Positions 15,233 through 43,353 of a stretch of 64,000 nucleotides of DNA are shown here, piece by piece (the stretch's first letter is position 1; each line of letters begins with the position of its first letter). This DNA comes from Candidatus Dojkabacteria bacterium. Lineage in GTDB: Bacteria; Patescibacteriota; Dojkabacteria; B142; OLB20. Under the pieces are notes generated by a model that was not told where the DNA came from, searched no databases, and was given only the letters and a program-made list of their open reading frames with translations. Position numbers and translations under genes: made by a program. The DNA is taken from contig JBHHUN010000001.1 in the NCBI GenBank assembly GCA_046753765.1, positions 12,141-76,140 on the forward strand, given 5' to 3'.

Positions 15233-15402
15233 ATATGTTGATTAGAGAAAGGTCTACATGAACTTCAAATGTTTGCGCAATATCAGAATCGAGAAAATCG
15301 GAAACGTATCATTAGAAATGTTACTAATATCGTTAATCTGCTGTAGGCTGGACTTTCAGCAATTGAGTATCGTTACTTTTTAAATATCATTGGGGAACAT
15401 TT

Positions 15403-16848: not shown

Positions 16849-16979
16849 GAAAATTGAAAACGCTCTGAGTGCCGATTTAACCCCTGTGCATTATTGAAAT
16901 AGTGATTTCGTACGAGACTATTGCTACATACTTCGGAAATGAATTATGTATTCCTAAAGCAAGTGAGAGCGACATTGAG

Positions 16980-17008
16980 TTATTAAGTTCGGCGGAATAA
17001 GGTATAAT
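16980..17008 (+). promoter_or_regulatory. Sigma70-like promoter candidate upstream of ychF (TTATTA-17-TATAAT)
   Basis: -35-like TTATTA at 16980-16985, a 17 nt spacer, then TATAAT at 17003-17008, 28 nt before the ychF ATG. Confidence 0.3.
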
Positions 17009-17035
17009 AACCAGTACACTTTAATATCAATTCCA

Positions 17036-18127: not shown

Positions 18128-18162
18128 TTTGCTAAAAAGCCTGCAAAAACACAACATTTATC

Positions 18163-18191
18163 TTGAGAGCGTAAGTGAAATTGATTAATAT
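18163..18191 (+). promoter_or_regulatory. Promoter candidate for the giant-gene locus (TTGAGA-17-TAATAT)
   Basis: TTGAGA at 18163-18168, a 17 nt spacer, then TAATAT at 18186-18191, about 112 nt upstream of the putative TTG start of giant gene 1. Confidence 0.35.
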
Positions 18192-18303
18192 GTAGTGAGG
18201 GTCGACCTCCTATTGTTTCTGTGCCTGAAAATTTTCTTTATTTTTGAAAATAAACACAGAATTGTTTGTGAATAATTTGCCAATACATGATCGGTAACTG
18301 CCC

Positions 18304-21300
18304 TTGCACACTGTCTTTCGTATATCAAAATTGAAACGCTTTTGTAGTCAAGATTTTGTACACTGGCTGGAAACCAGTAAAGGGTTTGTATTTTTTCTTG
18401 TTTTCATCATTTCAGTATCCCCCTGGTTGTATCTTTTTGTTAATCCCCAATCTGTTTCCGCGGATGAATGGTTTAGTGACTCCTGGGCATACAGAAAGGC
18501 AATAGATATTTCTGGCAACGCATCTGATTTGACCGACATTCAGTTTCAGGTAACCGGGGTCGATACCCAGGCGCTGTTCAACAGTGGCAAAGTGCAAAGT
18601 TGGTGCGAGGATATCCGTTTCACTAACCGCAATGGTCAACTTCTCGACTACTGGATTGAAGATGACGGCACTGACTGTGACGCCGACACTAGTACAGATT
18701 TCTGGGTTAAGCTGGACAGGGCTGAATCAGAAGGGACAAGGATTTTTATGTACTACGGCAATCCACTTGCAAGAGCCTACCAGTCAGGAAGCAGAACTTT
18801 TGATTTCTTCTCAAGTTTTGACGAATGGTATGACGAGGACTGGAAATTCAGAATAAGGCTTACCATTGACCATACGAAAGTTGAAGAAACAGTAGAGGAC
18901 TTTCCTGTTTATGTTGACCTGTCTGATCTCCCCGCTTCGTTTTTTAGTAATGTCCAAAGCGATGGTAGTGACATAGTAGTCACGAGGGTCGAGGATGCAG
19001 CGAAGCTATCAAGAGAGGTTGTCGCGATTAATACCGGCGGAAGTACCGGTGAACTTTGGTTTAGCGCCCCAAAACTATATACGCAGACAGATACCAGTTT
19101 CTACATCTACTATGGTAACGCTTCTGCAACAGAAACAAACAATTCCGGTACTTGGAATTCAAACTATGATCTGGTTTTTCATATGAATGAAGATCCTTCT
19201 GTTAGTACAGATGGAGATTGTGGTGGGGGGACTGATGAGGTGTGCGACTCCACTGTCAATAATAATGATGCGGATTCAAATGGCGGTATGACCACTGGTG
19301 ATCTTGTGGGTGGGCAGTTAGGGAGTGGAATCGATTTCGATGGTGGGGACGATTATTTGTCGATGAATGATGAATCTTCATCTGCCTTCACATATTCAGC
19401 TTGGTATAAGACTATAAATGAAACTGGAACTAAAATGATCCTGCAGACCAGTAACGGTCATTTACGCCTGCAGAATAATAATCATTTATTTAGTAATTTC
19501 GATAGCAGGAATGGGACAGGAAGTACTCACGAGGCTGCGATTTTAGGAAATGCAACTCAAGATATCTGGCATCATATAGCTATGTCAGTCACGTCCGGAC
19601 ATGTTGTCCAGGTTGTTCATGACGGTACTTCAATCTATAATACAACTCCTCCAACAGGATCTTCAACCTCAAACTATGCAAATGGGAAGGTAGGTGTTCG
19701 ATACCGAACTGCCCCCTCGGCAAATTTCTACGATTATTTTGAAGGGGTTCTTGATGAAGTACGAGTTGTTAATACAAACTTAGGATCAAATTGGATAAGC
19801 ACAGAGTACAACAACCAGAGCAGCCCAGGTACTTTCTACGGAATCAGCTCACAAGAAAGGAATGTACCTGTCTTTAGTAGTCCTGACTCCTGGTACAACG
19901 AAGCGTGGGCCAAGAGAGTTAAAGTTACTGTAAATAACTCAAAAGTAGATGAGGACGTAACAGGATTTCCGGTGTATCTGGATCTATCTCTTCTGGGAAC
20001 GAGTTTCTGGAACAATGTTGATGCGCAGGGCGACGATATTGTGGTAACTTCCGGTGACGGTGCCACAAAACTAGCACGGGAATTGGTTACAATTGATACA
20101 TCCGGAAAGACAGGAGAGCTGTGGTTTAACTCTGACCTCTCGAGCACGGTTGATACGGATGTTTACATCTATTATGGAAACGCTTCCGCAACTGAAACCA
20201 ACGATACATCAACTTGGAACAGTAACTTCCAGACAGTACACCATCTCGAAGAAGACCCCGGCGGCGTAGCACCACAGATGTCAGATAGTACATCAAATGG
20301 TTACAATGGTACTGCTAATGGTGGGATGACTAATGCCGACCAGGTTGCCGGCAAGATTGGGAACGCTTCTGACTTAGATGGTAACGATTTCTTTGCTACC
20401 ACCTATCAACCATCGGGCCAGACGGAGGTAAGTTTTTCTGCGTGGGTAAATCTGAGCACGAGCGGTATTGTATTTATAAATGGTTTCAATAGTGTCACAG
20501 ACGCATTTTACTTCTACCTGAGGGACTCTGACAATCTCCTTGGATGGGGTGTTGAAGGCGCAAATTTACAGGACCTCACCCAGACGTATGCACAGAGCGA
20601 GTGGCTATATGTCGTAGGAACATTTCAAAGTGGAACCACAAGTGGGAAGAAGATCTATTTAAACGGACAATTAGTAACATCTGCAACACAGACGGCAACG
20701 ATTACAGCCGCAACTGATTATGATATTGGTCAAAGATTCTCCGGAAACACTCTGACAGGAATGATGGATGAGACGAGGGTTGTAAACGCTGTCTTAAGCG
20801 GGAACTGGATATCAACCGAATATAGCAATCAAAATTCCCCATCAACCTTTTTTACGATTGGAAGTTCGGAGAGCAACTCTGCACCCCAGGCCAGTTGGTA
20901 CAACGGTGACTGGCAGTACAGGCAAAGGATAAGTATCCGGAACAGCCAGGTAGATACAGACCTTACAGACTTTCCTGTATATGTGGATCTCTCAAATATG
21001 GGTAGTGACTTCTTCCGGGAAGTTAAAAGTGACGGAAGTGATATTGTTGTGACCAGCTCTGATGGGTTTACTAAGCTGTCAAGGGAACTGGTGGCTATAG
21101 ATACCAGTGGAAGCACAGGCGAGCTGTGGTTTAAGGCGCCAAACCTTTATGATGCGTCAAACACCAGTTTTTATATCTACTTCGGGAATTCTTCCGCCGC
21201 AGAGATAAACTCTACTTCAACCTGGAAGTCAGATTACAAAGGGATATGGCATTTAGAAGGCGTATTCACTGATTCCACAACGAATGCCAACAATGGGACT

Positions 21301-24300: not shown

Positions 24301-26457
24301 CCCATTCTCATTTCTACAACGGTGCTTCCACTTGACGGTCAGTTAGATGATATAAGGGTCTACGACTACGAACGTACTCCTGCAGAGATTGGATCGGAGT
24401 ACGCACAGGGAGCGAGGGCTGCAGTTCCACAGAACGAGTTAGTTGGTCACTGGAAGATGGATGAGTCAAGTTGGAATGGCACAGCTGATGAGGTCATAGA
24501 TTCCAGTGGACTCGGAAATCATGGGACATCTTCAAACGGAGCCACGACAACAGTTGGAAAGATCAGTAGGGCGGGTATCTTTGATGGGAGCAATGATTCG
24601 GTCACAGTGGCCGATGTGAATGAACTGGACATGGGGACAAATGATTTCTCGATCACAGCCTGGGTAAAAACAGATAATGCAGGGGCGGATATGCGTGTTA
24701 TCTTTGGGGATGGCAATATGCAAGGTGGTGGAGACAATTCCTACGCTGTTTTATTACATGATAATAAGCCTGCTTTTGAACTTTACGACAACACGACTTA
24801 TTTAAGCAGAACTACTACTGCAAGTAGCACAACCGTAAACGATGGGAAGTGGCATCATTTAGCTTTTGTTTTTGACCGGAGCGGATCCGGGTCTATCTAT
24901 ATCGATGGCGTTTTTGATAAAGCCACGAGCATATCTTCAATTGGAAGTTTGGACAACACAAGAGGAGGGGCGATTGGAAATCAACCTACCAGAGCGTTTT
25001 ATTATGCTGGGCAGATCGACGAACTGAGGGTTATCCGCAGAGTCTTAAGTGATGAAGAGGTCTATAGCTTGTATGACTCTTTTTACGATGTAACAGTCTC
25101 CGAACGAAAACAAGCGGGAGAGGAAGTGCTCTATCTGCCTCTAAACGAAAAGTCGGGCTTGACGGCGGAAGACATCAGTGGTAATGGCTACAACGGAACA
25201 CTTAACAACACAGAAGACAGTGACCATCGTTTTGGGAAAATTGACTATTCAGTAGATTTGGACGGATCAAATGAGTACATAAGTGTCTCAGATAATAATG
25301 ATTTCTCTCCCTCAGTGACCGGAGCTGTGACAATGAGTGCCTGGATTAGGCCGGATACAATTGTCGCAGGAAACACATACATACTTACAAAAGGAGACAC
25401 ATCAAACTACGAGTATGCAATATGGCTTGGTACCGGTGGAGAGGTTGGTTGCACAGCATGGACACTCGCAGGCTTAAATCACCTTGCTGTCTCAGGCTCA
25501 ACATCAACCAGTGCAAACGAGTGGCATCATGTTGCCTGTGTCATTGAGCACAATTCGGAGATGAATATATATTTGGATGGCGCATCGGAAGGAACAGATA
25601 GTACACCTTCATCTACGATGGGTAACGGTACTGCTGATGTTCAGATTGGGAAGAGAGGAGATGATGTGGGGAATGAATTTGACGGCAGGGTAGATGAAGT
25701 AAAAATCTGGGATTTTGCCCTGAGTACCCGACAGATAGCAATGGAGTACAACGGCGGAAAACCTGTTAGTCACTGGCGGATGGATAGGCGAGAAGGAAAT
25801 ATGGCATATGACTACTCTGAAAATGGAAACCATACTCAATTGATTAATATGGCTCCAGCTTCCGACTGGCTTTCGGGGACAAGTTGCAGGATGAATGGGT
25901 GCTTAGACTTTGATGGTATTAACGACAGGCTTTGGGTAGCAGACGATGATCTCTTTGATGCGTCGCTAAACGATAGAAGTTATTCAGCATGGGTGAAGAT
26001 GCCATCTGATATCAGCGCCGGGATCGGTACTATCAGAGCGATTGTCTCAAAAGTGGCTCCATCTCTGCAGGAGCCACGATTTGACGTTGACGTTCTCAAA
26101 TCTTCTGGCTTCGTTGTGTTTGAAATTGAGTCCTCAACAAACGGAGATCTTACAAATATCACTGGAACAACCGACCTTAGGGACAACCAATGGCATCATA
26201 TCGTAGCGGTCAGAGATCGCAAGAATGATGAACTGAGGCTTTACGTTGACGGTGCGCAGGATGCGTCTCCTGTGACCGATGGAGACCAGGATGCATCAAA
26301 TAGTGGAGCTCTTTACATAGGTGATTGGGCCCCCGATCTTAGTAACGGAAGGAACTTTCTGGGACAGTTGGATGAAGTGAAGGTTTTTAATTACGCATTG
26401 ACTGATGCCGATGTACTTCTAGATTATAACCTGGGGTCAGCAATCAGATATGAGTAA
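18304..26457 (+). CDS. Giant membrane-anchored surface protein (2717 aa): 4 DUF2341-like repeats plus about 10 LamG/ConA-like lectin domains
   Basis: Single ORF of 8.15 kb. A non-ATG start is needed: TTG at 18304, and the first in-frame ATG lies after the TM helix. TM anchor FVFFLVFIISVSPWLYLF. DUF2341-like repeats have the pattern W.YR..I.I...DFPV.VDL...GsDI.V....LSRELV.IDT.G.TGELWF...YIYYGN. LamG_3-like units repeat (LVGWWKLDE...DSSGngnnGT...DFDG.DDYV...SAWV...WHHVA...LYVDGV...IDEVR.YNRALS..EI). The stop overlaps the start of the next gene (ATGAGTAA). Confidence 0.75.
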   Translation: MHTVFRISKLKRFCSQDFVHWLETSKGFVFFLVFIISVSPWLYLFVNPQSVSADEWFSDSWAYRKAIDISGNASDLTDIQFQVTGVDTQALFNSGKVQSWCEDIRFTNRNGQLLDYWIEDDGTDCDADTSTDFWVKLDRAESEGTRIFMYYGNPLARAYQSGSRTFDFFSSFDEWYDEDWKFRIRLTIDHTKVEETVEDFPVYVDLSDLPASFFSNVQSDGSDIVVTRVEDAAKLSREVVAINTGGSTGELWFSAPKLYTQTDTSFYIYYGNASATETNNSGTWNSNYDLVFHMNEDPSVSTDGDCGGGTDEVCDSTVNNNDADSNGGMTTGDLVGGQLGSGIDFDGGDDYLSMNDESSSAFTYSAWYKTINETGTKMILQTSNGHLRLQNNNHLFSNFDSRNGTGSTHEAAILGNATQDIWHHIAMSVTSGHVVQVVHDGTSIYNTTPPTGSSTSNYANGKVGVRYRTAPSANFYDYFEGVLDEVRVVNTNLGSNWISTEYNNQSSPGTFYGISSQERNVPVFSSPDSWYNEAWAKRVKVTVNNSKVDEDVTGFPVYLDLSLLGTSFWNNVDAQGDDIVVTSGDGATKLARELVTIDTSGKTGELWFNSDLSSTVDTDVYIYYGNASATETNDTSTWNSNFQTVHHLEEDPGGVAPQMSDSTSNGYNGTANGGMTNADQVAGKIGNASDLDGNDFFATTYQPSGQTEVSFSAWVNLSTSGIVFINGFNSVTDAFYFYLRDSDNLLGWGVEGANLQDLTQTYAQSEWLYVVGTFQSGTTSGKKIYLNGQLVTSATQTATITAATDYDIGQRFSGNTLTGMMDETRVVNAVLSGNWISTEYSNQNSPSTFFTIGSSESNSAPQASWYNGDWQYRQRISIRNSQVDTDLTDFPVYVDLSNMGSDFFREVKSDGSDIVVTSSDGFTKLSRELVAIDTSGSTGELWFKAPNLYDASNTSFYIYFGNSSAAEINSTSTWKSDYKGIWHLEGVFTDSTTNANNGTDSGSNAATGRFGNARSFPDTADLVTLGTSGYSASNTYTVATWLKPTIDIDAHAWEGGSVLSAPSLEGTSDSLSYYVNGVTSISTGSLTSGQWYYVVAVYDKAGTTQELYVDGVSKGTNSLDITDTFGGNFYLGNRGLAGGGGTTRNYGGTIDEVRVTNTVVSGTWISTEYNNQSSPGNFYGVGGIESSSNWNSFGGPDVSGGTATLSSVGDTEGLVTSTQFLENSKLIVRATQSSTSLNTARLGFSNSGISSTFTNDDSASYLFDSSTGANFEISNSNDGTATDGAGTTVEDTVTHDLEVGWRNAAVDFRLDNGAEGTVSTNPPNENMNVRLEVDTTDESVSIEWVAVGNYDSNPPNSQVINSEEVGGGELVYLPMDESSGQNVNNLGSQADIIGLLGTNALSESSDPSRVDECAKGNCLDFDGTDDVVTVADDDRIDFDTTDDFTITTWVKIEAATSEKVIFSKRVHTGATPEEGYFARLRATGEVEFGIEQASNTTTEVGGVGTTIIDDDRWHQVAFVRDVTADMVRYYLDGVLEEELTDTTTATLANTEDLLLGKRSGTNPDYMNGQIDEFRIFRKALTAAEILGQFNESGSVLGTDTNNLRDGLVGWWKLDEESWNGTSNEVVDYSGLDHHGNRNGNATTTGGHFGNAGTFDGNGDYAGFADTVDHEPASTVTVSAWVYPNNVATWHQVVVKRYSEASNPWDSYMLASTGVGASNKWRFCVSNGTSGSSVCADDTEVITANTWVHLVGRYDGSDVKLFVDGVEKSSVSKTGNIGYSSIGLRIGISTPTQPTQCMNGKIDEVRLYNRALSLTEIETLYEYRAPSVAHWKFDETSGTTAYDSSINGYNGTLTNMAEADHIDGKVGGALDFDGIDGYVTAGDNLVGLTFPVTVSFWINPDATEGANIFSTDSWNVAANYAGIAIVLSATNQVNLMYGDGTGSGSADRRSGTTTATLSTGTWHHVTGIIRGATDMEVFINGVSSALTYSGTGGSMVQTSDPILISTTVLPLDGQLDDIRVYDYERTPAEIGSEYAQGARAAVPQNELVGHWKMDESSWNGTADEVIDSSGLGNHGTSSNGATTTVGKISRAGIFDGSNDSVTVADVNELDMGTNDFSITAWVKTDNAGADMRVIFGDGNMQGGGDNSYAVLLHDNKPAFELYDNTTYLSRTTTASSTTVNDGKWHHLAFVFDRSGSGSIYIDGVFDKATSISSIGSLDNTRGGAIGNQPTRAFYYAGQIDELRVIRRVLSDEEVYSLYDSFYDVTVSERKQAGEEVLYLPLNEKSGLTAEDISGNGYNGTLNNTEDSDHRFGKIDYSVDLDGSNEYISVSDNNDFSPSVTGAVTMSAWIRPDTIVAGNTYILTKGDTSNYEYAIWLGTGGEVGCTAWTLAGLNHLAVSGSTSTSANEWHHVACVIEHNSEMNIYLDGASEGTDSTPSSTMGNGTADVQIGKRGDDVGNEFDGRVDEVKIWDFALSTRQIAMEYNGGKPVSHWRMDRREGNMAYDYSENGNHTQLINMAPASDWLSGTSCRMNGCLDFDGINDRLWVADDDLFDASLNDRSYSAWVKMPSDISAGIGTIRAIVSKVAPSLQEPRFDVDVLKSSGFVVFEIESSTNGDLTNITGTTDLRDNQWHHIVAVRDRKNDELRLYVDGAQDASPVTDGDQDASNSGALYIGDWAPDLSNGRNFLGQLDEVKVFNYALTDADVLLDYNLGSAIRYE

Positions 26458-32869: not shown

Positions 32870-33190
32870 CTCCCGAATCAAGGTGTCTTTACTAATTATT
32901 AGCAAGGGTGGCCCTCGTCTGATAATAAAGGGGGTATAAATTCCTGGTTTAGCCCAATCCTTTCTTGATCATCGTTGCATTCGTTGAACCGATAGCCCTT
33001 AAGCTAATAGCCCTTGAAGTCAGTCATTGCCATTATCTAATACTTCAAATATGCTTTGGAAGTAGAAAATTAAGAGTTTTTGTTATGAAACATTACTCAA
33101 AAACGTACAAAAGTGCACAAATGGTATTGCTACTAACCTTTTGTTGCATTAATATGTATTAGGCAACGAAATTAAGATAGGTAAATTTAT

Positions 33191-36100: not shown

Positions 36101-39100
36101 AGTGCGGCACAGATTAACTTAAGCCCTTCTGTCGCTGTCGATCCTAGTGCTCCAGTTAATGGTGACATGTGGTACAACGGTACTAATCTCAACTTCTATA
36201 ACGGGTCAGTGACGACAGATCTACTAGCCGGGTCGTCAAGTCTATGGACTGATGGCGGAACATTGACCTATCTAACAAGCACAACAGATGATGTTGTATT
36301 TGGAGGAACAACAAGCGCAGGGCCATTCTTCTTTGATACAAGTGCTGGCAAGCTGACACTGAACACTGTTGGAGCTGGAGCGGGGATAGCTCTTGGCGAT
36401 GACACTCTACTTTATGATGGTGGAACCAATTTAATTCAGACAGCTGACTCATTCACAATAGGCGGACAGCTCACAGTGTCGTCAACGGGCTCTAGCGGTG
36501 GACTTGTCATTGGCGATGACACAAATTTGTACGACAACGGTACGAATCTGTTACAGACAGATGACTCATTCACTGTTGGTGGGGCTTTAAGTGTTACTGG
36601 TGGAGCTGCAACTGTTTCAGGTGGTGGTTTGACAGTCACTGGTGGCAATGTATTAGTGCAGGGGACAACCCCACTTGATGTAATAGTTGATAACTCTACT
36701 ACAGGCACAACAGCTAATTCTGGGGCTTTATATCTGCGGGGTAATTACTTCAATGTAAGTGATACCGAGATAGATATGAGTATCCTTCTTAATGTTACAG
36801 ATAATACCGATTACAAGATAAGTTTCTATGATGACGGCCAGGTAGCAGAAGTTGGTAGCATTGACCAGAGTGGGAATCTGCAGGTTGATGGCAATTTTAA
36901 TCTAGGAACAGATACTGCTGATGTGTTGAGTGTAGGGACAACAGGGTCGACTGCTATAGGTGATCTCTATTGGGGTGATGATCTTATTTGTGACTCAAGC
37001 CAAGCCAACTGTGGTATTGCTTTTGGCGGATCCTCACTGTTTACAGATGGAGGGGCACTCACATACTTAACTCAAACAACAGATGATTTCTCAGTTGGAG
37101 GAACAGCGCTTGCTTCGGCATTTAGCGTTGATGTTTCCGCAAACACAGTAAGGATTGGGAGTGGTGCAACAGCCGATGCAGTTTTAAGCATGTTTGCCAG
37201 TGACGCAAGTACAGGCACAATCACATTCACTACAAGTGACAGGTGGGAGTTTTCAGGCGGGGATATATTGTTATCCGATGACCAGTCAATGTTCTTTGGG
37301 ACCGATGCAGACGCTTTCTTTAGGTATGACGAGCTTACAGATAACAGGCTGGAATTTGGATTTGGCGCAAACCAGTTCGGTTACATCGATGATGTTGCTG
37401 CTCAAACATATGGCGACTTCCTCTTTAATGGAACAACTACGTTGGGAACGGGTCTGGCAGGTACTGAAACTGCTCTTTACATTAATCCGACGACCGGATT
37501 CACAGGTACGCTTCTAGATATCGATGTCAATGGTAGTGATATCTTTGCAGTTTCCACTACGGGAATTACAGCCAATGTACCTGCTACATTTGCCAGTGCA
37601 GGGGACGTACAGATAGCGAACGATCTTGCATTTACGAATTCGACTTCATCAAACATCACCTCTGATGCACCTCTATATATTACTGCAGGTGATATTGCCA
37701 GTAGCGAAGATCTGTATCTCTCCGCGAACAACGCAGGATATGTGATTGTAGATGATCGACTTGAGGTAGCAGACTTAATACACCTTGGAAATGCGAGTGC
37801 AAACAACTATCTGGCAACCAGCGTTCAGACAAATACACCGACAACAGACCTGTATTGGGGGGATAAACTCGTTTGTGATGTCAGTGAGGCAAACTGCGGG
37901 AATATCTGGACAGACTCAGGAACGGTCTCATACCTGACTAGCACAACCGATGACTTTGCAATAGGGGGAACGTCTCTTACAGCGTCTCTCAGTATGGACG
38001 TTAGTGCTAACTTGCTCCGCGTCGGAACAGGTGCAACTGCGAACGGGAAGATAGATCTATACTCATCTAATGGAAATTCAGCTAGGCTTGAGTTGACCAC
38101 GACTGATACTGTCGAACTTAATAATGCGGGGTTCGTATTCAATCAGGCCGGAGATGCTGTTGATTTTGTTATCGAAGGTGATACCGATGCAAACCTGATA
38201 ACAGCAGATGGTAGTACCGATAGGGTTGGAATCGGTGTAGCTGTGCCTGATGCATTCTTTGATGTTAAGCCTGCGACAGCCGGAAGTGCTTCGATTAACA
38301 TTTCATCTTCTGCAACAGTTAATCCTTCGGTGCCGGTAGATGGTGACATGTGGTACAACGGTACAAATTTATACTTCTATGATGGGTCTAGTACTATAGA
38401 CATCCTTGCAGGCGGATCTGGATCGAGCAAGTGGACAGATGGAGGAACGTTAACATATTTAACCAGCATTACGGATGATCTTGCAGTCGGTGCTTCAAGT
38501 GCTGTTGCTCCTTTATATATTGATGTTGATACTAACCTAATAAGAATTGGAGATGGTGCAAGTGATGTCAATGATCCTACACTGACATTTTATGCGAGTG
38601 ATGCTGTAGATAGCGGAAGTTTGATCTTCCAGGATGACGATTCATTCTTTTTAAGTGGCGGATCGGTAATGATTGGAGCTGCAGCAGAAACAATTGCCGG
38701 TACAGGCTTCGTTGTTGACGGTGACGACGTATTTATAGCAGGTATGCTCGGTGTCGAAGGTGACATCTATTCCGATGGTGATCTATATATTCAATCGGAC
38801 TTAGATACTACCCTAGCTGGAGATATATCGATCAATTTTGGGGGCACTAACACTGAGATACTTAAATGGGATGCAACTAATGATGCCTTCAGCTTATCTG
38901 ATGACTTCCTCCCTGCTACCAATGATGTCAGTACATTAGGCATAGATACACTACGTTGGGCCGACCTCTTCCTGGGGCCGAATACGTTGCACATTGGAAC
39001 CTCAACATCTGATGAAGGTACTGTCAGTTACGACACAACAGCAAATAATCTCCTGATTGATTCAACGGGTAACCTCGTCCTGCTGAATGGTGGTGGCAAC

Positions 39101-42100
39101 GTTGGTATAGGTACAACCACAACTAATGCCTTTCTTGATATTACAGCTCCAACGACAGCTTCTGCGCAACTCAATCTATCCCCATCGATAGCAGTTGATC
39201 CTTCTGCACCAGTAGATGGTGACATGTGGTACAACGGCACAAATCTATACTTCTATGATGGATCGAGTAATACAGATCTTCTAGCGGGCGGGGGTAGCAC
39301 GTTGTTTACTGACGGTGGAGCAGTGACGTACCTCACAAGTACAACAGATGACTTCGCCCTTGGTGGATCAACATTAGCAGCGTCAGTGTTTGCAGTTGAT
39401 GAGTCAACTGGAGACTTTTACTTTGGATCTGACAACACAACTGATCCCAGCTTACTCTTTGAAGCCTCAGACGCTGATGCCGGACAGATTGATTTTACTA
39501 CCAATGACCGCTTTGAACTGATCGGTGCCGGATTGCTGTTAGATGACGACCAGTCACTCTTCTTTGGCGCAAATGCAGATGCTTACTTCAGTTATGATGA
39601 GCTAACCGATGACCGTCTCGAGTTTGGCTTTGGGGCTAATCAATTCGGATACATTGATGATGTGACGGCCCAAACTTATGGAGACTTCAATTTCGCAGGA
39701 ACGACCAGCTTAGGTACGGCACTTGCAGGCACTGAAACAGCGTTGTACATCAATCCCACAACTGGATTTACTGGAACTTTACTTGATATTGATGTGGACG
39801 GGGCAGATATATTTACAGTAACTTCAACAGGCATTACAGCTGATGTCCCTGCAACATTTAACAGTGCTGGTGATGTGTCGATCGCTAACGATATCAACTT
39901 CACTAACGGCTCATCGTCAACTATCACTTCATTGGCACCGCTTTACATCACTGCTGGGGACGCAGTGAGCAACGACAGTTTGATCTTGAGTGCCCAAAAT
40001 GCTGGGTATGTAATTGTTGACGACCGCTTGCAGGTGGAGGATATAATTCATCTTGGAGGTTCAGCAGACAACTTCCTTGCAGCTTCATCACAAACTAATG
40101 CAGCAACCGATGACCTTTACTGGGGCGATAAACTGCTCTGTGACGCCAGTGTGGCAAATTGCGGATATGTAACCACAGCGCTTTGGGCTGATGGAACTAG
40201 CGGGTACTACAGCAACACAGAATCGGTAATTGTAGGTGCTGATGCAGCATTCAGTTATGTAACCACTCCCGGAGCGGGGGACTTAAAGGTGGCAGATGAT
40301 TTCGAAGCAGCAGATGATGGTTTTATAGGTGGGGATCTAGTTGTTGGTGCGTCAACAAGCTCGACAGACACAATCTCAGACGCTGGGTTTGTCCTTGGTG
40401 GAGATGACCTTTTTGTTGCTGGTCTGTTAGGGGTCGAAGGCGCTATTTATACAGATGATGATCTATATTTACAAACGGACATAGACACCACCCTGGCTGG
40501 AGATATATCGATCAATTTTGGGGGCACAAATACAGAGATATTCAAATGGGATGCAACGGCAGATGCCTTTGATCTTTCGGATGATATTACTGTAAATGGG
40601 AATATCACGATTTCTGGTGCAGCTGCCGGACTCGTCTATGCAAATGTAGCAACAGGAAGTGCGCCAACCTGTGATTCAACGACTGTCGGGACAACAATAT
40701 ACAACCGTGACGCTGCTGAGGACGGAACTATCTATCTGTGTAGGCAAAATACTGCAGGTGCATATGAGTGGAGAGACATTACAAACGGTGCTGGAACCCC
40801 TGACATAGCCGAGTTCGTTAGAACAAACGACACCACCATCGAAGCGGGTGATATTGTGAGCGTTTCACTAGAAGACTACCAAGAAGAGAATATCTACAAC
40901 CGCTTCCTTGTTGAGAAGTCAAACACTACCAATGTCGGTAGGCTTATGGGTATCATATCAACAGACCCTGGGATCTTACTTAACACGGCAAATGATCCCA
41001 ACGAACAGCAGGATCTTACAAACCTCCGCCCGCTGGCTCTTGCAGGTAGGGTACCAGTCAAAATATCAGCTGCATCAGCTGATATAGTCAAGGGTGATCC
41101 GATATCGGCTTCAGATAAGGATGGGCAGGGACAAAAACTTCAGGGCAGTGGGATGATTGTTGGTATCGCCCTTGAAGAATGGACATCTACTAGCGGAGAC
41201 ACAGATGTTATGGTGTTGATTAAGAATACTCACTATGATTCTGCGACTGAGGAAGGGACATTATATCTTGGGGAAAGTGGAAAGGGACTGATCTCCTTTA
41301 ATGAAGAGACTGGTACTTTTGAGTTTGACTCCAATGGAGACGGAATCCCAGAGATGAGCCTTGGTGAGAACAACGAGATTGAGGTTGCGCAAGATGTTCT
41401 TCCTAAGAGTTCGCCTGCGACCCTCACTGATGAGAGTGGTCAACAAATCACAGATGGAATTGATCTGGGCAGTCCGGAAGCCTATTTTGACGATGTTTAT
41501 GCAAACACATTCCATGGTCAGGATTTAGCGATCAATAATTTCGATGTTGCCGAAGAATACTTGGTTGAGGATATGACAATCATGGCAGGGGATGTGGTTA
41601 GATTCAAGAAGGACAGTTCTGACAGTCTCTTTGTTGAACGCACCGACGAAGCACAGGATAAATATGCGATTGGTGTGATAAGCACAAAGCCCGGCTTATA
41701 CTTAAAGGACTGGCAGGAAGACCGTGAGAGCGGTAGACCTGTAGCATTGGCGGGGCGTGTGCCTGTCAAAGTTACAGACGAGAATGGTCCAGTACACCGA
41801 GGTGACTTTTTGACTCCCGCAAGCACACCGGGCTACGCGATGAAGGCGGTGAGGGGTGGTGTGATAATCGGCAGGGCAATGGAAGATTTTGATCCAGATT
41901 TTTTCGATAGTGGGGACAGTGAGATGGTAACGGCCACGCTCGGGAGTGCACTCGCAACAGCTGAAGAAGAGATTGCAGAGCTGGTTGAAAGTGGGGAGCT
42001 TAGTGACGGGGAAGCAACCGAATTCTTGTACAGTATCCAGGAGGAGGTAACGGCTGAGTATGATGAACAAGAAGAAGCCGAGATGATTGAGAATGAGCTG

Positions 42101-42742
42101 ATGCAGGAAGGAACTGAAACTGCCCAACAGATAGCAAATTCCGAAAAAACCGATCCCAAAAAAGAACAGGCTCTTAAGAATCTACAAGATGACCTGGAAG
42201 CAGAGCTGCAAGACCAGGCAGAGTATACAAAAGGTCGAGTCATGATGTTTGTAGATGTCAGTTTTGTAAACAGTGAGATATTTGGTCAGAAAGATAATCT
42301 ACTATCCGCTCTAAAGATTGAAAGCTTTGCCCTTGCTAACGGAGACAATCTCTTTGAGATTAATGACAATGTGGAAAGTACAAAACTCAAGGTGAATGTC
42401 TCAGATCTGATCGTCGCCGGATCGCTCACAGTAGAAGGCGATCTAGATGTTCTTGGAATCCTCTTTGCGCAGGAGGCTGCAACAAATAGCCTATTTGTTG
42501 AACGAAAAATCAATGTCGGGACAGAAGACCACCAAGCCGCAGGCGAGGTGACTCTTAAAGGTGGTATGACAAAGATCACTGTTGAAAATAATCAAATAAC
42601 TCCATATTCCTCAGTCCATATAACAAAAGATCAGTTTGTCAATTACAGAGTCATAGACATGAAACCCGGAATTGGATTCACTATACAAATTGATGATGCT
42701 ATCGACAACGATACAGTCTTCAACTACTTCATTATTAACTAA
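33191..42742 (+). CDS. Giant secreted or anchored fibre-like protein (3183 aa) built from duplicated modules
   Basis: 9.55 kb ORF with ATG start and an N-terminal hydrophobic signal/anchor (VFTLFASFVIVSALFLLV). At least 8 copies of a LYWGDDL(L/I)CD..Q.NCG...LFTDGG.LTYLT.T.DDF..GG motif. Three large module types are each present twice at 75-85% aa identity. The C-terminus carries a twice-repeated roughly 140-aa domain (AGD.V......GVIST.PG......PLALAGRVPVKV...G.I..GD.L..S..PG.AMK), an acidic coiled-coil tract and a final roughly 160-aa domain. Confidence 0.7.
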   Translation: MLPLHFTVKQLPFRAFYGRLLRVFTLFASFVIVSALFLLVSQTVSATVNSTMNFQGKVVNLSDGTNIVAGSPSCVAAGADTCDFRASIYTDSTGGTLLWQEPQSNVELGDYEGVFNLSLNSVCASWSSPGGSCSGSGLTWGSDSTIYLQIEFDDDGNGDFVSAETFTRKLLTSVPYAYEADQLDGIDSTGFVQLAPGSVQTTGNTTNPLIYLNENGTGTPNLLQLQVAGSDIATINNSGDLTITGDANINGGTINSTSVLTFNDSNTLDIAFSDASNTTLPVGTNSILHALNAASGGGGGLWTINANVTYLTSSGSDLSLASTLVSAFSVDESENLVRVGDGSSSNGKIDFYSSTGDTGRFEYITDTLQWSGGSVRIANNTSVNFGSSDQIQVLYDSTTDTRLEFSDGTNLLLALDDAGTTGDLLVTGTVSIGGSSNDVLATSAAAGAATSSLYWGNQTVCLADGTGCSTDYGLWEALSFNTGANTGTFENDNDVIVGTWAGDDTPLTNTGFVLDSTTADDLFVLDLLGVGDSLYVENNIVAGSGALTLSDSGITDGDSNLVLTATGANVVQISDALTVTGGTATFSGGNVIVQHTTPYDIVIDNSTVGVPTGGNLASDSGYLTLRGNFFDDTPDTDTELDMSLLMDVTDGSTYRLGFYNDGKAAEIGSLDESGNLQVDGTLNLGTNTADVLSVGAGTAANGDLYWGDDLLCDTSQSNCGWAAGGSTLFTDGGTLTYLTQTADDFAIGGSALASPFSVDTDINTVRIGDGTSDVNDPTVTFYASNAVDSGSIIYLDADGFQFSGGDVLVGAASETIAGAGFVLNGDDLFVNGQLGVEGDIYTDADLTLQSDVDTTGVGDITINFGGTNTETIAWIASLDGFQVSDDLLPSTDDALDLGSNTLRWRDLYTGPGTIHVGTSTSDEGTLSYNTTTNDLAIESTGDLVLLSGGGYVGIGTATTTAFLDITAPTTSAAQINLSPSVAVDPSAPVNGDMWYNGTNLNFYNGSVTTDLLAGSSSLWTDGGTLTYLTSTTDDVVFGGTTSAGPFFFDTSAGKLTLNTVGAGAGIALGDDTLLYDGGTNLIQTADSFTIGGQLTVSSTGSSGGLVIGDDTNLYDNGTNLLQTDDSFTVGGALSVTGGAATVSGGGLTVTGGNVLVQGTTPLDVIVDNSTTGTTANSGALYLRGNYFNVSDTEIDMSILLNVTDNTDYKISFYDDGQVAEVGSIDQSGNLQVDGNFNLGTDTADVLSVGTTGSTAIGDLYWGDDLICDSSQANCGIAFGGSSLFTDGGALTYLTQTTDDFSVGGTALASAFSVDVSANTVRIGSGATADAVLSMFASDASTGTITFTTSDRWEFSGGDILLSDDQSMFFGTDADAFFRYDELTDNRLEFGFGANQFGYIDDVAAQTYGDFLFNGTTTLGTGLAGTETALYINPTTGFTGTLLDIDVNGSDIFAVSTTGITANVPATFASAGDVQIANDLAFTNSTSSNITSDAPLYITAGDIASSEDLYLSANNAGYVIVDDRLEVADLIHLGNASANNYLATSVQTNTPTTDLYWGDKLVCDVSEANCGNIWTDSGTVSYLTSTTDDFAIGGTSLTASLSMDVSANLLRVGTGATANGKIDLYSSNGNSARLELTTTDTVELNNAGFVFNQAGDAVDFVIEGDTDANLITADGSTDRVGIGVAVPDAFFDVKPATAGSASINISSSATVNPSVPVDGDMWYNGTNLYFYDGSSTIDILAGGSGSSKWTDGGTLTYLTSITDDLAVGASSAVAPLYIDVDTNLIRIGDGASDVNDPTLTFYASDAVDSGSLIFQDDDSFFLSGGSVMIGAAAETIAGTGFVVDGDDVFIAGMLGVEGDIYSDGDLYIQSDLDTTLAGDISINFGGTNTEILKWDATNDAFSLSDDFLPATNDVSTLGIDTLRWADLFLGPNTLHIGTSTSDEGTVSYDTTANNLLIDSTGNLVLLNGGGNVGIGTTTTNAFLDITAPTTASAQLNLSPSIAVDPSAPVDGDMWYNGTNLYFYDGSSNTDLLAGGGSTLFTDGGAVTYLTSTTDDFALGGSTLAASVFAVDESTGDFYFGSDNTTDPSLLFEASDADAGQIDFTTNDRFELIGAGLLLDDDQSLFFGANADAYFSYDELTDDRLEFGFGANQFGYIDDVTAQTYGDFNFAGTTSLGTALAGTETALYINPTTGFTGTLLDIDVDGADIFTVTSTGITADVPATFNSAGDVSIANDINFTNGSSSTITSLAPLYITAGDAVSNDSLILSAQNAGYVIVDDRLQVEDIIHLGGSADNFLAASSQTNAATDDLYWGDKLLCDASVANCGYVTTALWADGTSGYYSNTESVIVGADAAFSYVTTPGAGDLKVADDFEAADDGFIGGDLVVGASTSSTDTISDAGFVLGGDDLFVAGLLGVEGAIYTDDDLYLQTDIDTTLAGDISINFGGTNTEIFKWDATADAFDLSDDITVNGNITISGAAAGLVYANVATGSAPTCDSTTVGTTIYNRDAAEDGTIYLCRQNTAGAYEWRDITNGAGTPDIAEFVRTNDTTIEAGDIVSVSLEDYQEENIYNRFLVEKSNTTNVGRLMGIISTDPGILLNTANDPNEQQDLTNLRPLALAGRVPVKISAASADIVKGDPISASDKDGQGQKLQGSGMIVGIALEEWTSTSGDTDVMVLIKNTHYDSATEEGTLYLGESGKGLISFNEETGTFEFDSNGDGIPEMSLGENNEIEVAQDVLPKSSPATLTDESGQQITDGIDLGSPEAYFDDVYANTFHGQDLAINNFDVAEEYLVEDMTIMAGDVVRFKKDSSDSLFVERTDEAQDKYAIGVISTKPGLYLKDWQEDRESGRPVALAGRVPVKVTDENGPVHRGDFLTPASTPGYAMKAVRGGVIIGRAMEDFDPDFFDSGDSEMVTATLGSALATAEEEIAELVESGELSDGEATEFLYSIQEEVTAEYDEQEEAEMIENELMQEGTETAQQIANSEKTDPKKEQALKNLQDDLEAELQDQAEYTKGRVMMFVDVSFVNSEIFGQKDNLLSALKIESFALANGDNLFEINDNVESTKLKVNVSDLIVAGSLTVEGDLDVLGILFAQEAATNSLFVERKINVGTEDHQAAGEVTLKGGMTKITVENNQITPYSSVHITKDQFVNYRVIDMKPGIGFTIQIDDAIDNDTVFNYFIIN
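34940..35500 (+). repeat. Intragenic duplicated module C, copy 1 (copy 2 at about 36605-37165)
   Basis: The protein segment ATFSGGNVIVQHTTPYDIVIDNST...LYWGDDLLCDTSQSNCG...VRIGDG is repeated as ATVSGG...VLVQGTTPLDVIVDNST...LYWGDDLICDSSQANCG...VRIGSG. Coordinates are approximate, within about 15 nt. Confidence 0.6.
35485..36205 (+). repeat. Intragenic duplicated module B, copy 1 (copy 2 at about 38541-39265; partial third copy at about 40440-40600)
   Basis: VRIGDGTSDVNDPTVTFYASNAVDSG...INFGGTNTE...LRWRDLY...GDMWYNGTNLNFYNG versus IRIGDGASDVNDPTLTFYASDAVDSG...INFGGTNTE...LRWADLF...GDMWYNGTNLYFYDG. A stretch of more than 30 bp is DNA-identical (38816-38848 = 40496-40528). Confidence 0.65.
37195..37880 (+). 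repeat. Intragenic duplicated module A, copy 1 (copy 2 at about 39462-40150)
   Basis: ASDASTGTITFTTSDRWEF...LEFGFGANQFGYIDDVAAQTYGDF...ALYINPTTGFTGTLLDIDVNGSDIF...DLYWGDKLVCD versus ASDADAGQIDFTTNDRFEL...LEFGFGANQFGYIDDVTAQTYGDF...ALYINPTTGFTGTLLDIDVDGADIF...DLYWGDKLLCD. Confidence 0.65.
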
Positions 42743-42858: not shown

Positions 42859-43353
42859 ATGTATCAACAAAGTCAAAGAGAAGTGATTGGCACTCTGGAC
42901 AGTGATTCTGGGCGTTTAGTCGAGGGGTTGTTAAAACTGATCCTGCTAGTAGTGATCTTTTTGCTTGGTGGTCTTGCATATAAGTTAGCTAATGAGGGTG
43001 GAGTACTTCCTGAACAGTTGTCATCTGGTTCCCGATCGAGTGAGAATGTCAGCGCAGGAGGCAACAGTAGTAGCGAGTTGTCAGTGGAGGAGGCTGTTGA
43101 AAAGATAATGTTGATCTCAACAGATGAAACACCAACGGTTGCGACAATTGTTGATAGTGAAAAACTCAAACAAGCCAACCCGGATTTCTACCAGAACACA
43201 CTAGATGGAGACCAGCTGCTGATTTACAGCAACCGGGCGATCATTTACAGGGCTCAGGACGGTCTGATCATCAATGTCCTCCCCATCACGAGGGATGATC
43301 TAAAGGATTCGGTAACACAAGTTGCTGGGGAAGAGACGGAAGCTCTCGAATAA
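42859..43353 (+). CDS. Single-pass membrane protein with one copy of a roughly 55-aa repeat shared with 43740..44444 and 52657..53781
   Basis: N-terminal TM helix (LKLILLVVIFLLGGLAYKLA). The C-terminal region VATIVDSEKLKQANPDFYQNTLDGDQLLIYSNRAIIYRAQDGLIINVLPI matches the repeats in the other two proteins. No known-family match recognised. Confidence 0.5.
   Translation: MYQQSQREVIGTLDSDSGRLVEGLLKLILLVVIFLLGGLAYKLANEGGVLPEQLSSGSRSSENVSAGGNSSSELSVEEAVEKIMLISTDETPTVATIVDSEKLKQANPDFYQNTLDGDQLLIYSNRAIIYRAQDGLIINVLPITRDDLKDSVTQVAGEETEALE

Follow-up and report, generated by a model that had tools for sequence, protein, structure and literature searches.

Three giant exported proteins of a Candidatus Dojkabacteria bacterium, including a probable MAT-like surface fiber with a predicted gp12-type cassette

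All 21 Bdellovibrio MAT proteins carry a beta-rich domain of ~130 aa right after the signal peptide, and their fibers were located experimentally on the predator surface, where they bind prey glycans (Caulton et al. 2024, PMC10769870). The D4 domains of the phage proteins gp12 and Dpo31 (the latter starting at Asp664) are auto-chaperones that are later removed (PMC13317679, PMC4690869). Giant DUF2341 proteins have already been published for Patescibacteria, including the DUF2341/FhaB giants of Patescibacterium danicum (PMC11809585), and DUF2341 proteins are also found in archaeal pilus loci (PMC4858521). Finally, WxL-WxLIP (Csc) complexes are known from Enterococcus and Lactobacillus.

We analyzed a window of 64,000 nt from a contig listed at NCBI as a Candidatus Dojkabacteria MAG (CPR). 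Three consecutive giant genes of this window encode what we judge, with some confidence, to be exported surface-adhesion proteins of the cell, the third being a MAT-like fiber with a gp12-type cassette. To our knowledge, little is known, besides type IV pili, about the means by which the ultra-small cells of CPR/Patescibacteria locate a host and keep hold of it, and very few of them have been cultured.

The three-gene region and its surroundings

The ORF listing gave three intact, back-to-back frames on the plus strand, in agreement with the initial annotation: gene 1 (18304-26457; 2717 aa, TTG start), gene 2 (26450-32869; 2139 aa, ATG start), and gene 3 (33191-42742; 3183 aa). Together they hold 8039 residues in ~24 kb, and the listing contains no further ORF of at least 150 aa inside the region on either strand. 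The start of gene 1 is uncertain (TTG at 18304 vs 18427 in one Logan gene call). In each protein a single segment, spanning residues ~23-46, is strongly hydrophobic; it is followed by an Ala-X-Ala-like site, and export signals were called from this combination of segment and cleavage-site motif. All three are rich in G/T/S/D/N and contain 0.5-0.6% Cys, so the hydrophobic N-terminal signal and the extracellular-type, Cys-poor composition first proposed for them were recovered.

The immediate upstream neighbor of gene 1 is ychF. The initial annotation had placed the genes between ychF and rpsF, which holds for ychF but not for rpsF (44546-44824), as two small membrane-protein genes intervene between it and gene 3; rpsF-ssb-rpsR and further housekeeping genes make up the other neighbors. 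The closest synteny was with WS6 OLB20, across CysS-CCA-RNaseJ-YchF-fiber, which, like the NCBI classification, fits the small-genome CPR host that had been supposed. The source organism is probably a tiny, host-dependent bacterium. In OLB20, the ortholog of gene 3 (65% identity, 1939 aa) directly follows ychF, and genes 1 and 2 are absent between the two.

These surroundings bear on whether the block could have been left by a prophage, acquired as a mobile island, or produced in assembly as a chimera of collapsed repeats. Such an origin would be in line with the phage-like C-terminal cassette of gene 3, described below, and with a GC content slightly above that of the flanks (0.45-0.48 vs 0.41-0.45). 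However, housekeeping genes stand on both sides, no phage, integrase, other mobility, or tRNA genes were found at the region, and an Rfam search of it returned no family. The expectations for a prophage tail fiber also failed on the signal peptides that the proteins carry and on an empty PHROGs search, and no MAT_N relative was found among 2.9 million viral contigs with the pattern used. Since the ychF-fiber position is kept in OLB20 and mobility genes and tRNA are missing, the region does not qualify as a mobile island, and the initial label of "island" was abandoned insofar as it implies an acquired block. At the DNA level, repeats are diverged (no more than 84% identity, over stretches of up to 220 nt), which makes a collapse of repeats unlikely; no tandem repeats of note were found in the region, GC skew runs continuous into the flanks, and at the 5' end two independent Logan assemblies match window positions 15036-20127 with 0-1 mismatch. 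On the strength of the housekeeping flanks, the OLB20 synteny, and the diverged repeats, the prophage, mobile-island, and repeat-collapse readings were dropped as largely refuted, and we give them hardly any probability.

A promoter had been proposed upstream of gene 1, at 18163-18191. The element found there by a consensus scan (18163-18194, plus strand) matches at 9/12 positions, with a -35 TTGAGA (18163-18168), a spacer of 17 nt, and a -10 TAATAT (18186-18191); taken singly, such a match is no excess over shuffled sequence. What speaks for the proposal is that the -10 lies inside an 11-mer, ATTAATATGTA (18184-18194), which recurs identically at 33148-33158, within a second promoter-like element upstream of gene 3 (33127-33158, plus strand; TTGCTA, spacer of 17 nt, TAATAT). 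This second element was missing from the scan list because it matches at only 8/12 positions. The exact 11-mer is confined to the upstream regions of genes 1 and 3 (expected number 0.05; at least two copies in 0/100 shuffles), and these regions are alignable. The near-identical putative promoters suggest that genes 1 and 3 are co-expressed.

DUF2341-LamG proteins encoded by genes 1 and 2

The DUF2341 and LamG similarities initially seen in genes 1 and 2 were confirmed by Pfam searches, with both domains above gathering scores: Laminin_G_3 (PF13385; cutoff 27.6) with E 1e-185 and 610 bits in gene 1 and E 1e-136 and 451 bits in gene 2, and DUF2341 (PF10102; cutoff 23.4) with E 1e-25 and 90.5 bits in gene 1 and E 4e-38 and 130 bits in gene 2. 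In gene 1, a signal or anchor with the hydrophobic segment (aa 1-53, 18304-18462) precedes four DUF2341 domains (from aa 97, 217, 572, and 907; 18592-21237) and nine LamG domains (from aa 346, 692, 1009, 1422, 1655, 1872, 2094, 2320, and 2537; 19339-26406), all on the plus strand; of the earlier count of four DUF2341 and about ten LamG, the former stands and the latter becomes nine by HMM. Gene 2, also on the plus strand, combines a signal (hydrophobic segment; aa 1-50) with three DUF2341 domains (aa 93, 217, and 1406) and six LamG domains (aa 336, 754, 990, 1200, 1750, and 1969), likewise by HMM. As had been supposed, the two genes are, judging by their sequences, paralogs (33% identity over 2172 aa and 44% in the first 546 aa). 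They have in common the mature N-terminus (E)W(F/Y)xDxWxYR, located after a signal-peptidase-I-like AXA site, and a homolog at another locus (L028) has an equivalent mature start, W..D.W.YR. The ATG of gene 2 and the stop of gene 1 overlap by 8 nt, an arrangement indicative of translational coupling. The DUF2341-LamG unit, of ~350 aa, is a widespread building block, and the exported strings of such units would act as multivalent lectin-like binders. Matches of both genes to TafC (haloarchaeal Tat-fimbria, NCBIfam) covered the LamG part only and fell far below cutoff, and those to Toxin_R_bind_N, Sialidase, and Pentaxin were LamG-fold cross-matches; all were set aside.

The initial annotation regarded this architecture as undescribed, but gene 2 is already listed at NCBI under the name "DUF2341 domain-containing protein" (MFQ5492567.1). 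Because giant DUF2341 proteins were already reported in Patescibacteria, genes 1 and 2 are ordinary for their group and singly add little. Like the published giants and the archaeal DUF2341 proteins, they are very large, exported proteins with DUF2341 repeats, here in a CPR genome, with a presumed role in adhesion or host interaction. They differ in pairing DUF2341 with six to nine LamG domains, in having no FhaB, and in adjoining a MAT-like fiber gene outside a pilus locus.

An alternative would make genes 1 and 2 accessory adhesins of type IV pili, associated with the pilus or its tip, rather than free-standing surface lectins. DUF2341 is annotated as a predicted part of type IV pili-like systems, and large DUF2341 proteins occur in archaeal T4P loci (PMC4858521, PMC11809585); one homolog (P0329) bears a prepilin N_methyl motif, and the window itself contains PilB, PilC, and pilin-like genes (56203-62779). 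Genes 1 and 2, however, lack the prepilin G|F-x-x-x-E motif, no N_methyl match was obtained in genes 1-3, and the conserved mature start follows a site of the signal-peptidase-I type. The pilus module, which was initially described as lying next to the region, begins with PilB at 56203, 13.5 kb or about 14 genes downstream of gene 3 and behind housekeeping genes, and in other genomes it is with a fiber that the DUF2341/LamG giants are associated, by linkage or by fusion. We therefore consider pilus-associated adhesins unlikely.

Architecture of the gene 3 fiber

Gene 3 is a hypothetical protein at NCBI, and the full protein has no Pfam match; its homologs were sought with N- and C-terminal pieces as queries. 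The signal peptide or anchor (aa 1-46, 33191-33328, plus strand), which contains the sole hydrophobic segment, ends in SQTVSA, with TVNS following, and relatives are alignable across it. Next comes an N-terminal beta-rich base domain (aa ~47-194, 33329-33772, plus strand). Residues 37-194 matched NCBIfam NF053851 (Bdello_MAT_N) with E 5e-7 over model positions 2-160 of 162, at 29.7 bits for a cutoff of 60, and the model matched 5/6 members of the gene 3 family (best E 6.8e-15). The near-full model coverage and the matches in relatives, together with a score below the cutoff, support a domain homologous to the Bdellovibrio MAT N-terminal domain but outside the curated subfamily. An AF2 model of the base domain, built from 6 sequences, had a pLDDT of 52.6, too poor for a fold search.

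The shaft (aa 195-2470, 33773-40600, plus strand) was delineated by self-comparison and motif listing. Its ~2,300 aa form a mosaic of internally duplicated stretches that have diverged to 40-78% protein identity, with motifs of several kinds: five "LYWGxxxxCx6CG" loops, "LWTDGGTLTYLTSTTDDF" nodes, and "DLGSNTLRWRDLY" / "VGIGT...AFLDI". For the shaft, searches of Pfam, PHROGs, and PDB sequences yielded no match; PHROGs gave only noise on gene 3, and PDB sequence searches gave nothing meaningful, whether the query was the whole protein, the last 713 aa, or a segment of the shaft. Such a mosaic, with a phage-fiber-like C-terminal cassette at its end, agrees with the fiber-like repeat protein initially described.

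The cassette is preceded by a segment with a Cys pair (Cys2494/Cys2517; aa 2471-2537, 40601-40801), located directly before the first DxAE boundary. Two G2-like modules follow, copy 1 (aa 2538-2664, 40802-41182), which starts with DIAEF, and copy 2 (aa 2785-2900, 41543-41890), which starts with DVAEEY and is a predicted auto-chaperone beta domain of the phi29 gp12 type. The copies are 29-36% identical, and copy 1 retains the near-invariant residues of the family. Further along are an acidic helical region (aa ~2911-3009, 41921-42217), with four long helices predicted by AF2, and a C-terminal beta-sandwich (aa ~3117-3183, 42539-42739; AF2 pLDDT above 90); all of these lie on the plus strand. 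The sandwich has a weak Pfam match to K1-lyase_C (E 0.004), and in Foldseek it matched phage tailspikes and K1-lyase_C proteins, in each case at the C-terminal domain.

When the AF2 model of the cassette (monomer, pLDDT 79.9) was used in a viral fold search, phage "preneck appendage" and K1-lyase_C proteins came out on top, with E values down to 3e-10, and the modeled gene 3 modules appear to be folded like the C-terminal fragment of gp12 (3GQH). A profile aligned to 3gqh_A with an E value of only 0.17, the alignment beginning exactly where the cleaved gp12 fragment does; DIAE at 2538 and DVAE at 2785 both fall on residues 1-4 of 3gqh_A, and within DxAE the D, A, and E each show at least 90% conservation among 48 homologs. 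With Peptidase_G2 (PF11962; threshold 25 bits), neither gene 3 nor its isolated modules gave a match, and the homologs P0205 (26.1 bits) and P0228 (28.1 bits) passed at profile positions 15-102. It should be noted that the link to gp12 rests mainly on the predicted fold, because the PF11962 threshold was missed and the E value at the sequence level was 0.17.

This cassette sets gene 3 apart from both published classes of MAT C-termini (S74 and non-S74 tip): no S74 match was found in Pfam, and no SDxxxK motif in the protein. The gp12/G2-type end may be functionally analogous to the S74 end. Approximately 30 of the best 150 cassette-bearing proteins also have a MAT-like base domain (lengths 1000-3764 aa). 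Relative to phi29 gp12 (Peptidase_G2; 3GQH, 3SUC) and Dpo31 D4, the gene 3 module is tandem-duplicated and followed by an extra beta-sandwich, it lies under the Pfam threshold, its cleavage is putative, and the cassette is carried by a cellular, Sec-exported fiber rather than a virion tailspike. Two tandem modules, the first of them internal, are also unlike phage intramolecular chaperones.

The cleavage site of gp12 is located before Asp692 of DFAE. The conserved acidic residues at this boundary are reportedly held to be catalytic in gp12, by Xiang et al. in 2009 and by MEROPS, and the same 2009 work is said to make domain release dependent on ATP. ATP is unavailable outside the cell, which counts against a release of this kind in gene 3. 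By analogy with gp12, the gene 3 cassette would nucleate trimerization starting at the C-terminus and might then be cut before the conserved Asp of DxAE (D2538 and/or D2785), exposing the tip; if cut at the first DxAE, aa 2471-2537 would be a candidate mature tip. It is also conceivable, although we hold it to be the less probable course, that the gp12-like modules stay uncleaved as permanent trimeric knobs on the fiber, like phage capsid decoration proteins or the base of a head fiber, with the terminal beta-sandwich as the receptor-binding tip.

Phage depolymerase tailspikes usually end in gp12-type cassettes and K1-lyase_C domains, LamG folds are found in glycosidases and sialidases, and there were weak matches to the Sialidase N-terminal domain and to alginate lyases. 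The region could accordingly be degradative, with a depolymerase of the tailspike kind encoded by gene 3 and carbohydrate-active enzymes directed at the host envelope by genes 1 and 2. We find this improbable: Pfam, NCBIfam, and PHROGs detected no catalytic domain in the 8039 residues, no match to a pectate-lyase-type beta-helix was obtained, and the shaft consists of fiber-type repeats. The adhesive fiber remains the preferred reading of gene 3.

Related loci and possible role in host attachment

Two genes downstream of gene 3 are candidate partners of the fiber and may serve its anchoring or assembly. The first, tm164 (42859-43353, plus strand), starts 116 nt past gene 3 and encodes a single-pass membrane protein with a conserved ectodomain of ~65 aa; the second, tm234 (43740-44444, plus strand), is a paralog with two copies of the ectodomain. 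Homologs of tm164 lie directly downstream of fiber genes in other Patescibacteria, and an ortholog of tm234 lies downstream of the OLB20 fiber (L003, 18563-19300). Genes of this family, TMdom, were found at most 300 nt downstream in 7/46 loci, a count that rises when split fibers are included; no relative of the family was found in the PDB.

The architecture of gene 3 recurs across Patescibacteria. In 48/59 related loci, the fiber is flanked by a WxLIP-like cassette of three to five genes, absent from our 64,000-nt window. Half of the cassette genes are WxLIP-like (Pfam WxLIP_PGBD match in 13/40; PDB EfmWxLIP1, E 0.003), and the WxLIP-like proteins have a signal and a C-terminal TM anchor. These flanking genes recall the Csc complexes, with the differences that the partner family, casA/B, contains fn3 only and gave no WxL HMM match, and that the link to the fiber is known from gene neighborhood alone. 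A WxL-like C-terminal motif considered in casA/B was dropped for want of such a match.

Fibers and DUF2341-LamG proteins are also associated elsewhere. In L028, a fiber gene, a DUF2341/LamG giant, and a TMdom gene form a single operon-like row, and in L048 and L047, base domain, shaft, and two DUF2341-LamG units are fused in one ORF. The sole PDB sequence match of the L048 tip region was the MAT Bd3182 (8ojn, E 1.5e-3), and an S74-like motif was seen in it by eye.

Gene 3 thus resembles the Bdellovibrio MATs in its signal peptide and the conserved, beta-rich base domain directly behind it (an HMM match under the cutoff), its long mosaic fiber body with a swappable C-terminal end and a phage-type folding cassette, a fused relative (L048) that matches a solved MAT tip, and, on the producer's side, a lifestyle based on attachment to other bacteria. 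It differs in scoring below the family cutoff, in being 2-5 times longer (3183 aa), in ending in two gp12/G2-type modules and not in S74, in a shaft without sequence similarity to solved MAT tips, and in its producer, which belongs to the CPR and presumably lacks an outer membrane. Because the base domain is homologous to that of prey-binding MAT fibers, the attachment apparatus originally proposed for the region has become more plausible.

The most likely role, by analogy with these fibers, is host attachment via a long trimeric fiber and multivalent lectins. Gene 3 would be exported by its Sec signal and retained on the producer surface by the base domain; its shaft of duplicated beta modules would be stabilized by short disulfide loops, and its end would be made up of a pair of auto-chaperone modules like that of phi29 gp12, followed by a helical bundle and the small beta-sandwich. 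Trimer formation, cleavage, surface retention, and host-cell binding are what we infer for it, and the locus is a plausible candidate for the apparatus with which such bacteria take hold of a host. A 3183-aa "hypothetical protein" would then become a concrete MAT-like, phage-fiber-like adhesin with a base, a shaft, a cassette, and candidate cleavage sites.

More tentatively, gene 3 may represent a widespread, undescribed host-recognition organelle of Patescibacteria: a cell-anchored, phage-derived trimeric fiber with a MAT-type base, a gp12-type folding cassette, swappable modules that include DUF2341-LamG, and dedicated docking partners, acting as a main determinant of the hosts to which a CPR episymbiont can attach. 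Literature searches returned no paper connecting CPR fibers with MAT proteins or gp12-type chaperones. If the MAT-like reading of gene 3 holds, one fiber design would underlie Bdellovibrio predation and CPR episymbiosis, two unrelated lifestyles, and the variable distal modules could serve for predicting or engineering host range and for fishing out the hosts of uncultured lineages.

Docking in such an organelle would be by the small TMdom proteins here and by the WxLIP-like cassette in most other lineages. As to dimensions, extrapolation from the Bd3182 fiber (~550 Å for ~760 residues) gives a possible length of ~150-200 nm for the gene 3 fiber.

Three giant genes downstream of ychF

The initial annotation described three back-to-back plus-strand ORFs of 2717, 2139 and 3183 aa, and the ORF listing returned exactly these: gene 1 (18304-26457, with a TTG start), gene 2 (26450-32869) and gene 3 (33191-42742), with no ORF of at least 150 aa on the opposite strand within them. 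The description of their products was also borne out. Each has a single strongly hydrophobic segment at about residues 23-46, followed by an Ala-X-Ala-like site, with no second membrane-like segment in any of the three; Gly, Thr, Ser, Asp and Asn are abundant, and Cys accounts for 0.5-0.6% of residues. In the NCBI annotation of this Candidatus Dojkabacteria MAG, gene 2 is a "DUF2341 domain-containing protein" and gene 3 is "hypothetical protein ACE5DX_00190". No significant tandem repeats were found in the DNA of the three genes. Repeat collapse in this 24 kb region seems unlikely, because the dispersed DNA repeats are diverged (no more than 84% identity across stretches of up to 220 nt) and because two Logan assemblies, made independently from different runs, agree with positions 15036-20127 at 0-1 mismatch, an agreement that covers this interval only.

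The flanks consist of housekeeping genes, nearly all of them on the same strand. Before gene 1 are PBP2, dprA, topA, rpsB, tsf, frr, rseP, dnaX, recR, cysS, cca, an RNase-J-like gene and ychF; after gene 3 come two small membrane-protein genes, rpsF-ssb-rpsR, a 690-aa ORF, the S41 protease and HtrA genes, prmC, prfA and dnaB, with prmC and prfA the sole minus-strand genes of at least 150 aa in the window. GC skew is positive in 31/32 windows across 1-64000, which, together with the strand bias, is consistent with a single leading-strand replichore arm. The GC content of the three genes is barely above that of their flanks. The window holds no tRNA gene and no Rfam family, and neither an integrase nor a phage gene is among its annotated genes. 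No Pfam model matches the 690-aa ORF (45682-47754), which lies between rpsR and the S41 protease gene and whose N-terminus is not hydrophobic.

The promoter proposed at 18163-18191 is unremarkable when taken alone (9/12 consensus match); its -10 element, however, lies in an 11-mer, ATTAATATGTA, that recurs 5' of gene 3. This 11-mer has exactly two copies in the 64 kb, upstream of gene 1 (18184-18194) and 33 nt upstream of gene 3 (33148-33158), against a chance expectation of 0.05 per window, and none of 100 shuffles contained two copies. The two upstream regions can also be aligned through an A-rich tract and a TTGAGA/TTGCTA element with 17-nt spacing. The common 11-mer and the alignable regions suggest similar promoters, in which case the gene 1-2 pair and gene 3 may be co-expressed.

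Gene 3, a probable MAT-like fibre with a predicted gp12-type cassette

What this analysis adds lies in gene 3 rather than in genes 1 and 2. Gene 3 as a whole has no Pfam match. Its residues 37-194 weakly match positions 2-160 of the 162-position NCBIfam model NF053851, the N-terminal domain of the mosaic adhesive trimer (MAT) fibres of Bdellovibrio. When the first 230 residues were used alone, the match reached an E-value of 5e-7 at 29.7 bits, under the cutoff of 60, and 5/6 sequences in an alignment with the closest relatives of gene 3 matched the model, with a best E-value of 6.8e-15. All 21 MATs carry a beta-rich domain, conserved and about 130 aa long, directly after the signal peptide; it is proposed to sit at the predator surface, and some family members were shown to be surface-located and glycan-binding (PMC10769870). 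We read the base domain of gene 3 as a probable homolog of the MAT domain, though not a member of the curated subfamily from Bdellovibrio. AF2 modeled this base domain with a pLDDT of just 52.6, too low for use.

The shaft, residues ~195-2470, is a mosaic of diverged segmental duplications with recurrent motifs along its length. Self-comparison paired aa 754-1047 with 1773-2067 (64-73% identity), 1276-1585 with 2031-2343 (66-78%), and 576-809 with 1139-1361 (about 60%). All 16 cysteines of gene 3 fall into eight close pairs (74/82, 123/133, 461/468, 712/719, 1267/1274, 1562/1569, 2317/2324 and 2494/2517), five of which sit in a repeated motif, LYWGxxxxCx6CG; along the shaft, this arrangement suggests short disulfide loops outside the cell. 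No sequence similarity between the shaft and solved structures was detected. The Bd3182 fibre, of about 760 residues, has been modeled at ~550 Å (PMC10769870), and a fibre of ~2,500 residues might, by extrapolation, reach some 150-200 nm.

The last 713 residues gave 11,124 matches at E ≤ 1e-3 among 1.84 billion representative proteins. These concentrate on a module of about 120 aa that is present twice in gene 3 (aa 2538-2664 and 2785-2900) and that is joined elsewhere to varied N-terminal parts, including beta-propellers, FG-GAP, LVIVD and collagen. The named matches are mostly from CPR bacteria (WS6, Parcubacteria, Woesebacteria, Doudnabacteria and Uhrbacteria). Two homologs of the module passed the Pfam Peptidase_G2 threshold, under which gene 3 itself stays. 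A 48-sequence alignment shows a D-x-A-E motif at the module start in which D, A and E hardly vary, and the module profile places this motif at residue 1 of PDB 3GQH, which is the C-terminal piece that cleavage releases from phi29 gp12, with an E-value of just 0.17. An AF2 model of aa 2770-3183 built with the same alignment had a mean pLDDT of 79.9, and both the beta module and the final ~65 residues exceeded 90. Foldseek agreed with the tie to the phi29 gp12 auto-chaperone, and the best matches in a viral structure library were proteins annotated as phage preneck appendages and proteins with a K1-lyase_C domain (E down to 3e-10). From these lines together, gene 3 is predicted to end in a duplicated phage tailspike-type folding cassette, after which come four helices and a small beta-sandwich. 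The cassette would be of the gp12 type rather than the S74 type.

Both the gp12 domain and its counterpart in Dpo31, D4, which starts at Asp664, are auto-chaperones: they aid trimerisation and are removed (PMC13317679, PMC4690869). It is possible, though we consider it rather unlikely, that the cassette of gene 3 stays uncleaved: phage capsids also use this fold for a trimeric knob that is permanent, and of the two module copies in gene 3 the first is internal.

A fibre family of Patescibacteria and its neighbors

Gene 3 is a long member of a family rather than a singleton, as about 30 of the best 150 cassette-bearing representatives also begin with a MAT-like domain, these 30 or so being 1000-3764 aa long. 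A scan of one genome per species detected the base domain at 42 loci, nearly all in Patescibacteria (Dojkabacteria, Saccharibacteria, Moranii-, Levyi- and Roizmanbacteria), and another 80 loci came from a metagenome scan. Many MAGs labeled uncultured Gammaproteobacteria/Pseudomonadales also carry this fibre together with the flanking WxLIP-like cassette described below (loci L011, L017, L018, L021-L028, L030, L031 and L035-L040). These labels may be wrong, since the flanking genes are close kin of those at a Levyibacteria locus (e.g., L024 vs L032, E 1.7e-190).

The initial annotation had termed the three genes an island, a term that is wrong or at best loose. WS6 OLB20 has the order cysS-cca-RNaseJ-ychF-fibre, with no gene 1 or 2, and its fibre is 65% identical to gene 3 over 1939 aa. 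Because this order is kept, gene 3 was inherited vertically at its ychF-adjacent position, and genes 1 and 2 are a lineage-specific insertion or were lost in OLB20; acquisition of all three genes together is argued against. The OLB20 orthologue (L003:9959-17541) is broken between the two gp12-like modules, giving a 2145-aa ORF and a 397-aa ORF in different frames with a 43-nt overlap. A frameshift error, a pseudogene or a genuine arrangement of two genes could account for the split.

A WxLIP-like cassette of 3-5 genes from two families flanks the MAT-like fibre gene in 48/59 loci with at least 3 kb of upstream sequence (genome and metagenome sets). Its genes encode proteins of ~310-390 aa with a signal peptide (e.g., L008:5370-9831, L024:3224-8706 and L072:3108-9073). 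The first family, with a signal and a C-terminal TM anchor, resembles WxL-interacting proteins (Pfam WxLIP_PGBD in 13/40; PDB EfmWxLIP1, E 0.003); the second has an fn3-like match only and ends in DYxDTLTxVAAGxF. This cassette is not beside the fibre in Dojkabacteria loci, nor is it anywhere in the window.

The two small membrane-protein genes after gene 3 belong to another family of neighbors, TMdom, single-pass proteins with a conserved ectodomain of about 65 aa (consensus ETPTVATVxDxxKLxxQxFFxxAxNGDKVLIYxxxxKAILYRPS) and, in some, a LytR_C-like tail. The first, tm164 (42859-43353), begins 116 nt after gene 3 and is followed by its paralogue tm234 (43740-44444), which has an orthologue in OLB20; further members lie at 52657-53781 and at L008:12942-13472, L009:14005-14496 and L096:15552-16700, among others. 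A TMdom gene is within 300 nt 3' of the fibre in 7/46 loci, and in several more it directly follows a split fibre or an intervening giant gene; the position straight after a fibre gene recurs across several classes of Patescibacteria. These proteins have no relative in Pfam or PDB and are candidate anchor or assembly partners.

Gene 3 appears to be a MAT-like, phage-fibre-like protein of a widespread Patescibacteria family with conserved neighbors. Our literature search found no paper describing a MAT-like, gp12-cassette fibre family in this group.

DUF2341-LamG proteins and their link to the fibre

Genes 1 and 2 had been read as paralogues built from DUF2341 and LamG domains, and Pfam confirmed these domains, with Laminin_G_3 at E-values of 1e-185 and 1e-136 and DUF2341 well over threshold. 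Matches to Toxin_R_bind_N, Laminin_G_1/2, the Sialidase N-terminal domain and Pentaxin were set aside as cross-matches within one shared jelly-roll fold. With HMMs made from the internal copies, we counted four DUF2341 and nine LamG domains in gene 1, and three and six in gene 2. The two proteins are paralogues, with 33% identity over 2172 aa (44% over the first 546 aa). Translational coupling is suggested by the 8-nt overlap between the ATG of gene 2 and the stop of gene 1. The novelty claimed for them was not upheld. DUF2341-LamG units of about 350 aa are common as proteins or modules in metagenomes and CPR bacteria (including a 547-aa protein of WS6 OLB20), published giant DUF2341-bearing proteins of Patescibacteria have been read as adhesins (PMC11809585), and domain searches found no catalytic domain; genes 1 and 2 are therefore large representatives of a known kind of protein.

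This kind of protein also accompanies the fibre elsewhere. At locus L028, the gene after the fibre encodes a 1509-aa DUF2341 and LamG protein that shares 26% identity with gene 1 across 1474 aa; a TMdom gene comes next. On two metagenome contigs (L048:522-6422, Ga0163154_10008790; L047:3833-8668, Ga0163147_10012236), a single polypeptide combines a signal, a MAT-like base, gene-3-like shaft modules and two DUF2341-LamG units, and L076 and L083 also join the base domain with LamG. The sole PDB sequence match of the L048 tip region is the MAT Bd3182 (8OJN, E 1.5e-3), beyond which an S74-like motif (SSFRYKENI...LGFVAEE) was recognised by eye. From these fusions and neighborhoods, we infer a functional tie between the two kinds of protein. 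The outline first proposed, exported lectin arrays and a fibre in a CPR bacterium, was right, and the three proteins plausibly serve attachment, with trimerisation, cleavage, anchoring and host binding all putative.

DUF2341 proteins of archaeal type IV pilus loci have been proposed as pilus-tip adhesins (PMC4858521). Here, the pilus module described as adjoining is so only loosely, as its first gene, pilB (starting at 56203 and followed by pilC and pilin-like genes), is 13.5 kb past gene 3. Directly 3' of pilB and pilC lie genes for a giant 849-aa pilin-like protein (59712-62261), with a prepilin N_methyl motif and then LVIVD beta-propeller repeats, and for a 171-aa pilin-like protein (62264-62779; KAFTLVEI). 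LVIVD repeats are also fused to some homologs of the gp12-like module (P0205, P0219).
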